A DNA stretch of 28,054 nt, taken from contig CANRDA010000001.1 of assembly GCA_947629285.1 (NCBI GenBank), positions 1-28,054 of the forward strand, written 5' to 3'. The notes under the pieces were generated by a model. That model was given only the letters and a program-made list of their open reading frames with translations. It ran no database searches and was not told the origin of the DNA. The position numbers and the translations under genes were made by a program. The stretch is from an uncultured Bacilli bacterium (lineage in GTDB: Bacteria; Bacillota_I; Bacilli_A; RF39; UBA660). Of the stretch, positions 4,271-18,144 are shown in pieces; position 1 is the first letter of the stretch; each line of letters opens with the position of its first letter.

Positions 4271-4279
4271 TGGTATAAT
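4271..4279 (+). promoter_or_regulatory. Extended -10 promoter, probably driving the cas9 operon
   Basis: TGgTATAAT immediately downstream of the terminator; no clear -35. Confidence 0.55.
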
Positions 4280-4292
4280 TAAATTGTGATAC

Positions 4293-4386
4293 AAAAAAGG
4301 ACTGTCTAAACAGTCTGCTTAGGGTAATCCATAAGGAAAACCTTTATTTTAACTTTCTATGTCATCTTAAATGGTATTAAGACAAC
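4293..4386 (-). ncRNA. tracrRNA: tracrRNA
   Basis: Minus strand reads GUCUUAAUACCAUUUAAGAUGACAUAGA-AAGU-UAAAAU-AAAGGUUUUCCUUAUGGAUUACCCUAAGCAGACUGUUUAGACAGUCC-UUUUUU. It has an anti-repeat to the array repeat, the same GA/AAGU bulge and UAAAAU lower stem as SpCas9 tracrRNA, a nexus-like segment, a terminal hairpin and a U6 tract. The 5' end is approximate. Confidence 0.92.
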
Positions 4387-4389
4387 TTA

Positions 4390-4419
4390 ATTGTATCACG
4401 TAATGAAGGAGGAAGTCAA
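4390..4419 (-). promoter_or_regulatory. tracrRNA promoter, overlapping the cas9 ribosome-binding site
   Basis: Minus strand TTGACT (4419-4414), 18 nt, TACAAT (4395-4390), with TG extension. Confidence 0.65.
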
Positions 4420-4420
4420 G

Positions 4421-16187: not shown

Positions 16188-16253
16188 ATGGAAATAGATT
16201 TTGAATTTTGGGACGATTTAGATTTAGAAAAGGACGTTGAAAAATGTTATTGA
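16188..16253 (+). CDS. 21-aa acidic micro-ORF
   Basis: MEIDFEFWDDLDLEKDVEKCY*; SD AAGGAG 7 nt upstream; overlaps the pI start by 10 nt. Confidence 0.45.
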   Translation: MEIDFEFWDDLDLEKDVEKCY

Positions 16254-16891
16254 TTTTTATAATTATAGGTATAGTATTCTTTTTTTGGAGATTTAGAAAA
16301 ACAAAAATAAAATGGAAAACCTTTTTTAAAAAAGGTTTTGCACCTGTACGTGGTAGATTTGGTATTTATTGCTACTGTGGTAAGCAGGGTAGTGGGAAGA
16401 CTTATAGTGCAGTAGAATTTTTATTACATAATACTGATTTGCCAATATATAGTAATGTATCTACTATTAAGGGTATAGATTATACATATTTTAGTGGTTT
16501 TGACGAATTATTAAAATTAAAGGATAAGACTGATTGTATTATCTTTTATGACGAAATATTTACTGCACTTACTCGTTCTAGTAGAATGAATACAGACGTT
16601 TTAGATTTTCTATCTCAAATGAGAAAGAGACGTATTATATTTATTACTACTGCTCAAGAGTGGTTAGAGATTAATATGACATTAAGGAGATACTGTAGAT
16701 TTCAAATAGAATGTAATATGCGTAATATATTCGGATTAGGTATATTAATTAAGCATTGTTATGATGCTGAGCAATTAAAATGGTCTCAAGAAGATAACGA
16801 GTATATAGCACCTCTAATATCGACAACTATCTCAAAATGTAATTTATATGTAGCAAATAGTTATGATACATTCGAGCAAATAAAAACTTAA
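16244..16891 (+). CDS. Zot/pI-like morphogenesis ATPase with N-terminal TM
   Basis: N-terminal TM, Walker A GKQGSGKT, Walker B CIIFYDE, LSQMRKRR, TTAQ; the inovirus hallmark gene. Confidence 0.92.
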   Translation: MLLIFIIIGIVFFFWRFRKTKIKWKTFFKKGFAPVRGRFGIYCYCGKQGSGKTYSAVEFLLHNTDLPIYSNVSTIKGIDYTYFSGFDELLKLKDKTDCIIFYDEIFTALTRSSRMNTDVLDFLSQMRKRRIIFITTAQEWLEINMTLRRYCRFQIECNMRNIFGLGILIKHCYDAEQLKWSQEDNEYIAPLISTTISKCNLYVANSYDTFEQIKT

Positions 16892-17386
16892 TTTTTTTGC
16901 CATACTTTTTTAAATAACTAAAAAAAAGTATGTACTATACTATGAGAGTATTTTCGATTAATTTTGCTTTAGCAAAATTAATTGAAAATACTTAATCCGC
17001 GAGGGTTAGAACTCTAATGAACGCGATTTTCAGTACCATATATAATGCTTATGTTATCAGTTTTTAATAAAAAATAAAATTTAAACTTGTTTAAATTATA
17101 TTTTTTAGCAACAGTAGAAAGGGTTCACGCGTGGGGCTAACTTAAAATCGCGTTGGAATTTAATTAGAATTAACAAAGTGTAAAATAATTTTTTCTATTG
17201 GGTTTCACCCAATAAAAAAAATTATTCCACAGGTTCTTAGGGTGTAACCCTAAGTAGGTCGTAGGACAAAGTCCTACATACGATAAACAAGTATAGTAAT
17301 GGGTGCGTTTTAGCACGGTAATTGCACACTACGACTAATGCAATTACTGTGTCAAGTGTCAAATATAGAAAAGGAGTAGGTAAAAT
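16892..17386 (+). other. Phage intergenic region: hairpins, probable packaging signal and single-strand origin, and double-strand origin
   Basis: Hairpins at 16901-16932, 16948-16991, about 17184-17226, 17236-17254, 17261-17277 and 17318-17347. The last has ACTACGAC in its loop. Confidence 0.75.
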
Positions 17387-17935
17387 ATGGATAAATTTAG
17401 AGCGAGGAACTTTAATTTAGTTCTTTATGACGAGGACGAAACACATCGAAGAGCGTTAGAATATATCGAGAAAAATTGTGATTACGCAAAAATATTGCAC
17501 GATAGGGACGTTAATCCTGATACTGGAGAAATCAAGAAACCTCACTATCACATTGTAATTAGGTTTCAAAATGCGAAATGGAATACGTCCCTAGCGAGTG
17601 ACTTGGGAATAGGGGAGAACTATATCGAAGAGAGTAGGAACTTAAAAAGGTCTTTACTTTATCTCATACATTATTATGACGAAGATAAGTTTCAATATAG
17701 TGTAGAAGACGTAGAGGGCTCTCTTAAGAAAAGATTATTAGAAATTATAAAAAATGACGATAAAACAGAAAGTGAAAAGGTAATAGAATTATTGAATTAT
17801 ATTGACGATTGCGATTATGAAATAGATTTGAGTGCCTTTATTCGTTATGTTGCATCTATTGGATACTGGGATATATTTAGGCGTTCTCCTTATGTTTTTG
17901 AAAAATATATTATAAAACATAATGATAATTTGTAA
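17387..17935 (+). CDS. rep: Rolling-circle replication initiator, Rep_2 (pMV158 RepB-like) HUH endonuclease
   Basis: RNFNLVLY (motif I), LHDRD...GEIKKPHYHIVI (HUH), YLIH...DKFQY (catalytic Tyr); SD AAGGAG. Confidence 0.92.
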   Translation: MDKFRARNFNLVLYDEDETHRRALEYIEKNCDYAKILHDRDVNPDTGEIKKPHYHIVIRFQNAKWNTSLASDLGIGENYIEESRNLKRSLLYLIHYYDEDKFQYSVEDVEGSLKKRLLEIIKNDDKTESEKVIELLNYIDDCDYEIDLSAFIRYVASIGYWDIFRRSPYVFEKYIIKHNDNL

Positions 17936-18122
17936 GGTGGTGGTATTTATGAATAATGATATTAAGTATTTGCAAAGTGAAAACTATTTACTAAGAAAAA
18001 AAATTCGTGAAAAGAACGAACTTTTAAAGAAATATTATAGAAAGATAAGACATTTAGAGTTAGAGCTCTACTGTGATAAGTGTTCTAATGAGCAAATAAC
18101 TATCTATGATATGAGAAGTTAA
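17922..18122 (+). CDS. Small basic coiled-coil protein; its stop codon lies in the att site
   Basis: LQSENYLLRKKIREKNELLKKYYRKIRHLELEL heptad pattern; TAA at 18120-18122 is inside the Xer arm. The true start may be ATG 17949. Confidence 0.6.
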   Translation: MIICKVVVFMNNDIKYLQSENYLLRKKIREKNELLKKYYRKIRHLELELYCDKCSNEQITIYDMRS

Positions 18123-18144
18123 CATAATATATATTGTCGGATAT
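18117..18144 (-). other. dif: Chromosomal dif site (right attachment site)
   Basis: Minus strand ATATCCGACAA-TATATA-TTATGTTAACT, an 11-6-11 site resembling B. subtilis dif ACTTCCTAGAA-TATATA-TTATGTAAACT; located at the gene-orientation switch. Confidence 0.9.

Follow-up and report, generated by a model that had tools for sequence, protein, structure and literature searches.

The stretch of DNA analysed here (28,054 nucleotides, called the window below) is the entire contig C1 of a metagenome-assembled genome (MAG; 62% complete, 874 kb, 26% GC) from an uncultured member of the Bacilli. It holds a type II-A CRISPR-Cas locus with a broken cas9 and, 1.2 kb from the CRISPR array, a 5,838-bp prophage (12291-18128, + strand) that carries both a look-alike of the host's CRISPR repeat and a copy of the host's centromere site parS. 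An earlier note on this DNA had seen a single system in this arrangement, in which an inovirus would co-opt three host machines through short non-coding mimics, namely XerCD through dif, ParB through parS, and tracrRNA/Cas9 through a repeat decoy. Our analysis favours a different joint explanation, to which we give a probability of about 0.6: the element is an inovirus that inserts at dif, its parS is a trait of its clade, its repeat look-alike is coding sequence, and cas9 was lost to self-targeting by spacer 2 of the array, which matches a second inovirus in the same genome. Underneath this explanation lie direct observations: the anatomy of the prophage and its conservation, an empty integration site, a circular junction, a self-targeting spacer and a fixed frameshift. 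Each element that the earlier note described was confirmed in the sequence, and its interpretation is supported in part. Dif use, parS and the repeat look-alike make more sense as separate traits than as parts of a single system; of the proposed mimics, dif/Xer and the conserved parS are supported, while the repeat unit is coding and the loss of cas9 is better explained by spacer 2.

Integration at the chromosomal dif site

The prophage lies between 16-nt direct repeats (12275-12290 and 18113-18128). Judged by its genome hallmarks, which are a pI/Zot-like protein, a Rep, a coat-like protein, an adsorption protein and the order of their genes, it is an inovirus (Tubulavirales), in keeping with the 5.84-kb inovirus-like element that the earlier note had recognised. 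Its gene order is that of circular 4.4-5.4-kb Inoviridae genomes from rodent faeces and of bajarodino viruses, and it recurs in 13 prophages from other genera within the host's family, whose pI proteins are 54-82% identical to that of the window apart from one distant protein at 34.5%. The pI is 34-39% identical to the annotated Zot of circular Inoviridae records. These 13 prophages and six others of the family, all of them more distant, formed our wider comparison set, while close phage relatives were collected by means of the phage protein o95; four of the latter (L065, L067, L068 and L069) include the regulatory region.

The right junction of the prophage falls in the chromosomal dif site (attR, 18117-18144), a 28-mer that is unique in the assembly, coincides exactly with the switch in GC skew and gene orientation, and is 23/28 identical to what we take to be the B. 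subtilis dif site. On the left, attL (12275-12306, + strand) is made up of the 16-nt core repeat and the phage-derived half of a dif-like site. A genome of the same genus (G065) shows the empty site, with zupT followed by ~200 bp, dif and the same right flank, and no prophage. Excision, like the length of the cas9 A run discussed below, was judged from independently assembled samples, that is, from consensus assemblies. A contig from another sample (L061) runs from pI through Rep and the core to the repressor, across the predicted attP, and therefore represents a circular or tandem junction. In the attP read from L061 the left arm equals dif, the central region has 7 bp instead of 6, and there is similarity to dif in the right arm; the attP of the diverged relative L069 has both dif arms, and three family prophages terminate at dif-like sites. 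A profile search that covered the larger open reading frames (ORFs) of the phage found no integrase. The host itself encodes a XerC/XerD-type tyrosine recombinase (926-1813, + strand; Phage_integrase 3e-54 plus SAM_1) that is syntenic in G065.

With an empty site, a unique dif, an attP junction and dif-like ends, integration at dif by host XerC/D is well supported, and dependence on Xer is what these sequences predict. We propose that an active, integrase-less inovirus has inserted at the chromosomal dif by host XerC/D, through its dif-like attP. On the use of the host dif/Xer system the earlier note is supported, and the empty site in G065, the dif-like attP and the lack of an integrase among the scanned ORFs all agree with it.

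Use of dif by this phage is a further case of a known phenomenon. Like the IMEX phages of Vibrio and Xanthomonas (CTXphi, VGJphi, TLCphi and Cf1c), it has a dif-like attP and no detected integrase, a single complete dif remains at a junction once it has inserted at the chromosomal site, and a circular form appears to exist alongside the prophage. It differs from them in its host, a monoderm and plausibly spore-forming member of the Bacillota, in its attP, which has a 7-bp central region and a double-stranded-type site, and in its pairing of an XRE repressor with a pMV158-type Rep_OBD initiator.

A host-type parS in the early promoter region

The conserved parS is the strongest new point and the best lead, although what it represents is a known trick in a new setting. 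The strong early promoter of the phage (12572-12627, + strand; TTGACA, 17 nt, TAAAAT) carries operator copies at 12578-12595 and 12612-12627, and 26 nt past its -10 box lies a perfect 16-bp palindrome (12626-12641) that is identical to the host's own origin-proximal parS sites. The perfect parS reported in the earlier note is thereby confirmed. The host centromere, on contig C2 (14225-15298), has ten exact parS sites and one near match within 1.1 kb, in the intergenic DNA between gyrA and tadA/dnaX, and the gene for a ParB_N protein lies on a different contig. In four related genomes, all exact parS sites lie in one cluster of 250-800 bp with 3-5 sites. Since parS is confined to one such cluster in these genomes, the phage copy is the sole one outside the origin region; a lysogen has it at the terminus. 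The host cluster is also interleaved with two copies of ATTTCCCGGGAAAT, which is presumably the Noc-binding consensus.

Among the four diverged relatives, L065 and L068 carry a perfect parS, and L067 and L069 a parS with a single mismatch; in every case the site lies past the -10 box, ~20-45 nt downstream of the early promoter. The operators within or after the promoter in the same phages, on the other hand, fall into three or four unrelated sequences. That parS stays fixed while the operators differ argues for constraint by a host factor and not for a repressor operator, and the comparison supports parS as a conserved element of this phage clade, as opposed to a chance palindrome. A TTTCA block resembling a parS half-site (12642-12660) is found 4-8 nt after the full parS in all five phages.

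It seems quite improbable to us that ParB makes no use of the palindrome, and that it serves instead as the site of a phage regulator or as a hairpin in the 5' untranslated region of the early transcript. Its position at about +19 of the predicted transcript and its 2-nt overlap with the second operator would suit such a role, as would the conservation of the half-site-like block behind it. At the same time, the palindrome is exactly the host centromere sequence, among 65,536 possible 16-bp palindromes, and it shares the flanking A/T that extend the host sites to 18 bp. Moreover, it remains constant while true operators change between phages with different repressors, and a hairpin would be free to covary.

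If parS is used as such, host ParB would be expected to load on it inside the early transcription unit. On the 5.8-kb replicative circle this would amount to partition of the plasmid kind, with the circle also taken into the forespore along with the origin region, and/or it may damp the early promoter. We infer this binding, and what it would do for the phage, from the identity of the sites. Spo0A and SpoIIM are both encoded by the host, which makes an endospore-forming lifestyle plausible; its family has genomes of ~1 Mb, and the sequencing runs that contain the window sequence are rabbit-gut metagenomes.

The phage phi29 has five parS sites and undergoes Spo0J-mediated entrapment in spores (PMC2731898). 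Both phi29 and the phage described here would be phages of spore-formers that bear the host's chromosomal ParB site without a ParA or ParB of their own. However, phi29 is a lytic podovirus with linear double-stranded DNA, and its five sites are accompanied by Spo0A boxes (0A boxes), whereas the present phage is a chronic single-stranded DNA (ssDNA) inovirus with one site and a half-site in its early promoter region. No consensus 0A box is present in it, and as a prophage it places parS at the terminus. A literature search on parS, ParB and inovirus found nothing relevant.

The repeat look-alike lies in a conserved coding frame

The phage does contain the repeat-like unit that had been reported: a 32-mer at 13038-13069 (+ strand, the sense strand of the early operon) that matches the host repeat at 28 of 32 positions and the repeat of another genus (G008) at 30 of 32. 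In 1.74 million genome positions, nothing besides the array, the tracrRNA locus and this 32-mer reaches 24/32, so that chance alone is excluded as an explanation.

The description of the unit as a short non-coding mimic did not hold up. The 32-mer encodes VLVLCLYKWYY within the 58-aa frame of o58 (12990-13166, + strand), a small membrane protein with a predicted helix, the sequence YKWYYWKK and a basic tail. Proteins of this type, with a membrane helix, a [YF]KW[YFL]YWK motif and a basic amphipathic tail, occur in eight other phage lineages, and between lineages the frame shows changes at third codon positions. A frame conserved in nine lineages with synonymous changes indicates that the 32-mer is coding. 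The homologous 32-mers of eight relatives score 26, 24, 24, 22, 21, 20, 19 and 19 (of 32) against the repeat, and control sites that have the 3' motif only score 12-21/32. These controls are chance loci from a search of GTDB genomes with a DNA pattern for the YKW motif, which gave 19 loci, one of them a true homologue. Sites of at least 22/32 are expected by chance ~0.3 times per phage genome, and the baseline similarity of the family can therefore be a chance seed kept by protein constraint. According to the joint explanation, the 32-mer codes for the membrane helix and YKW motif of a conserved small protein, and in this one lineage it drifted, or was pushed, unusually close to the repeat.

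The unit stands alone, with no second repeat at +/-66 nt, and a degenerate mini-array was ruled out, as nothing repeat-like lies 62-70 nt to either side. The 20-30 nt upstream of the 32-mer, considered as a possible Cas9 guide against a competitor, match only the phage itself and L068, and both of these matches are followed by repeat-like sequence. Rfam, searched at E up to 0.1, does not call the 32-mer a CRISPR repeat. Elsewhere, in the relative G119, which has a large type II-A array, we saw a single repeat-like 31-mer with three mismatches to the pattern on a contig of its own (C55, 1941-1971); it may be the tracrRNA locus of that array or a solitary unit.

A fixed frameshift in cas9 and a self-targeting spacer

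The cas9 gene (4421-8478, + strand) begins at an ATG at 4421 that has a good ribosome-binding site, and the frame opened there ends after 10 codons. The sequence KKYNIGLDIGTTSVGW with the RuvC-I aspartate lies in the -1 frame, which is open without a stop to 8478; this frame (4429-8478) includes all Cas9 Pfam domains, and the rest of the gene is intact. Two relatives are in frame across the same place, starting MEKFKKYNIGLD and MKNEKKEYNIGLD. Since these relatives read through the start region, the lesion is, on this comparison, a one-base contraction from A8 to A7 in the A run at 4431-4437. The A7 is identical in four contigs from four other samples, which differ from the window by 1-5 substitutions, and an assembly slip is thereby ruled out as the source of the frameshift. 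That the resident cas9 is out of frame, as the earlier note had it, is thus borne out by A7 in five assemblies and by the position of RuvC-I in the -1 frame.

An ordinary reason for this lesion is found in the array (10416-11045, + strand), which consists of nine exact 36-nt repeats, a tenth that is degenerate, and nine spacers of 30 nt. Spacer 2 (10518-10547, + strand), the second-newest, matches 29 of 30 positions in a Zot gene (PF05707, 9e-10) on contig C85 of the same genome (2244-2273, minus strand), with its single mismatch 11 nt from the end proximal to the protospacer-adjacent motif (PAM). The target belongs to a second inovirus prophage (locus L078, ~1000-7100 of contig C85, - strand) whose genes include Zot, a Rep of the G2P type and one that resembles o95; the rest of this contig is 73-82% identical to two congeners. 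The genome thus combines a spacer that matches its own DNA with a disabled effector. Self-targeting of a resident inovirus was shown to be lethal, and natural inovirus lysogens that are self-targeted are expected to have lost CRISPR-Cas function (PMC6813254).

Self-targeting by spacer 2 is enough to account for the fixed cas9 frameshift in an ordinary way, and it is the most likely cause, so that an out-of-frame cas9 needs no phage decoy: the dead cas9 has a mundane cause. We propose that cas9 would have been knocked out by the poly-A contraction because spacer 2 targets the second inovirus, now in the same chromosome; this order of events is our reconstruction. The locus resembles the self-targeted inovirus prophages described before (PMC6813254) in having an array spacer against a resident inovirus and a disabled CRISPR-Cas system. 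It differs from those cases in that the lesion responsible can be named, a change from A8 to A7 in cas9, and in that a second, untargeted inovirus lies 1.2 kb from the array. The dif-integrated phage has no match among all nine spacers of the array, in line with the earlier note, which had seen none.

The N-terminal domains of pIII in the second prophage and in the dif-integrated phage are 69% identical as protein and 79% as DNA; outside this domain the two phages are unrelated, which suggests a shared receptor-binding module.

The remainder of the CRISPR-Cas locus is in good order. On the - strand, the tracrRNA (~4291-4395) has its anti-repeat at ~4346-4383, the usual AAGUUAAAAU element and a terminator (stem at 4299-4316, then a U run), with a weak Rfam CRISPR-DR22 match at 4348-4383. 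The genes cas1, cas2 and csn2 (8468-10324, + strand; Pfam Cas_Cas1, CRISPR_Cas2 and Cas_Csn2) are intact and follow cas9, as in a type II-A locus. This bears on whether cas9 might still be alive, either as a phase-variable gene or through low-level expression made possible when the polymerase or the ribosome slips on the A run. The break, at codon 5-6, does fall in a homopolymer, the other 1,349 codons are intact along with cas1, cas2, csn2 and the tracrRNA, and the cas9 genes of relatives likewise have A6-A8 runs at the same place. Polymerase slippage can rescue poly-A frameshifts in small AT-rich genomes. However, A7 is present in 5/5 consensus assemblies and an ON variant was never seen, and the self-targeting spacer speaks for loss of function; we therefore hold a living cas9 to be rather improbable, and cas9 loss through self-targeting to be the better account.

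The island that contains the locus (3042-11118) also carries a DNA-alkylation-repair gene and a metallophosphoesterase gene. All of it, these two genes included, is missing from G065, where the flanks are collinear, and the island is a recent gain near the terminus.

Evidence against the joint explanation and the case for a decoy

Several findings weigh against the joint explanation. When the codons of the window protein are resampled, 30/32 is reached in only 5 of 10,000 trials (P ~5e-4), and 28/32 to the host repeat in 4 of 1,000. The predicted duplex of the 32-mer with the tracrRNA has -28.1 kcal/mol, compared with -33.6 kcal/mol for the true repeat, and the 32-mers of relatives give -13 to -23 kcal/mol with the host tracrRNA. 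Similarity above what the protein predicts makes a nucleotide-level pull on the 32-mer likely, either by selection or by a recombination patch. The parS site, for its part, is absent from the 13 related prophages, from the other six of these more distant family members and from the second prophage. The scoring of related elements that the earlier note had proposed therefore gives parS in the four close relatives and none in more distant prophages, which makes it a trait of the clade and not of inoviruses in general. With respect to cas9, the second prophage is placed in the same cell only by binning and by the synteny of its contig with congeners, in a 62%-complete MAG, and the lethality of spacer 2 is presumed.

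The excess similarity of the look-alike is intriguing but unproven. The reading that would make most of it is that the 32-mer is a working RNA mimic in the early mRNA, double-coded with the membrane protein, that pairs with the tracrRNA and is cut by RNase III; it would soak up tracrRNA and Cas9 or yield a harmless non-canonical guide, and so be a type II counterpart of the RNA anti-CRISPRs. We consider this unlikely. In its favour, the unit lies on the early operon's sense strand, it keeps the lower stem, the bulge G and the upper stem of the duplex whose energy is given above, and its identity of 28-30/32 is far over the genome background, where nothing else reaches 24. Its codons resemble the repeat more than the protein would demand (P 5e-4 to 4e-3). 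At each of the four nucleotides where it departs from its closest relative, L068, the difference brings it nearer the repeat, and with L065 as the outgroup three of the four look derived. Cellular mRNAs can become Cas9 guides by pairing with tracrRNA (PMC8224270), and for types I and V it is established that phages mimic repeats (PMC10651486).

On the other side, the 32-mer lies in a conserved coding frame, and its 3' 12 nt follow from the YKWY motif of all family members. Close relatives that keep parS score just 21-26/32, and no unit at all is present in the 13 related prophages, two of which have hosts that carry this repeat family; moreover, the 32-mer fits the repeat of another genus (30/32) better than that of its own host (28/32). 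The 32-mer has no promoter of its own, and with a dead resident cas9 a mimic would be of no current benefit. IMG/VR, searched with the repeat pattern, the pI protein and the o95 profile, gave no matches, nor did the JGI metagenomes searched with the o95 profile. Comparative support for a decoy role is absent from the sequences compared.

The published RNA anti-CRISPRs are intergenic and have their own promoters; they were sought in intergenic DNA and tested for types I-C, I-E, I-F and V-A only (PMC10651486). The unit shares with them that it is solitary in a phage and highly similar to a repeat, with no cas genes or second repeat nearby. It departs from them in that it lies within a conserved ORF, is not conserved in relatives, and has as its nearest promoter that of the operon, 440 nt upstream, where the known examples are non-coding and just after a promoter of their own. 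It also resembles a type II repeat, which needs a tracrRNA, and an anti-CRISPR role for it is only a candidate one. The nearest mechanistic precedent is that of the non-canonical crRNAs, in which a segment of mRNA is complementary to the tracrRNA anti-repeat (PMC8224270); those are host transcripts of Campylobacter, while here the transcript is from a phage and is only predicted.

Other genes of the prophage

Leftward from the early promoter, the phage encodes an XRE-family repressor (12310-12582, - strand; HTH_3 3.5e-10, phrog_8 1e-16). The first early gene, o67 (12737-12940, + strand), is without a family match. In the natural phage variant L061, from another sample, ~163 nt (12772-12934) are missing, which is most of o67; the gene is therefore dispensable, and it could be an accessory or anti-defence gene. 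Next come o30 and o58 (12946-13166), two small hydrophobic ORFs that overlap in different frames, with o30 ending exactly on the first base of the repeat-like unit. In more distant relatives the helix and the YKW motif are found in a single ORF. A programmed -1 frameshift joining o30 and o58 was rejected, as neither the window nor L068 has a fitting slippery site, and the two are treated as overlapping genes. The product of o95 (13156-13443, + strand), conserved in 11 clusters, is probably an ssDNA-binding protein of the gene-V type; a language-model lead to Putative_G5P was not confirmed by hidden Markov model searches, and the PHROGs match is marginal (E 0.085). For o30, o58 and o52, the PHROGs search gave no family.

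The structural module (13640-16136, + strand) has coat-like, o52, o130, pIII-like and pVI-like genes in an order that is kept in the 13 family prophages; its pIII-like protein (14338-15840, + strand; 500 aa) has a signal peptide and a C-terminal anchor. It is followed by the gene for the pI/Zot-like morphogenesis ATPase (16244-16891, + strand; phrog_197 5e-7, with Pfam Zot under its cut-off), by a structured intergenic region that we presume to be the replication origin (16892-17386, + strand; inverted repeat at 17171-17239), and by the gene for an HUH rolling-circle Rep (17387-17935, + strand; Rep_OBD 4e-19).

Implications

The look-alike calls for care when RNA anti-CRISPRs are sought, since a strong and statistically real match to a repeat can be coding; conversely, a double-coded mimic, should there be one, would escape any search that looks at intergenic DNA only. 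We regard it as very unlikely that this inovirus clade mimics its host in three ways at once, with a dif-like attP, a conserved parS and, in this one lineage, a stretch of membrane-protein codons selected to act also as a tracrRNA-pairing mimic. If it did, no RNA anti-CRISPR would have been known before for type II, nor one hidden in coding sequence, and this would be the first of both kinds, in a phage whose parS loads ParB on the replicative circle and whose lysogen gains a centromere at the terminus.

On the joint explanation, the locus is a clean, dated example of a conflict between CRISPR and inoviruses that ended in the loss of cas9. As for parS, if host ParB really loads on the phage site, this would be the first inovirus that we could find to borrow the chromosomal partition system. 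Such borrowing would offer a simple explanation of how so small a chronic phage, with no partition genes, persists in dividing and sporulating gut anaerobes, and the lysogen would be a natural experiment, with a centromere planted at the replication terminus.

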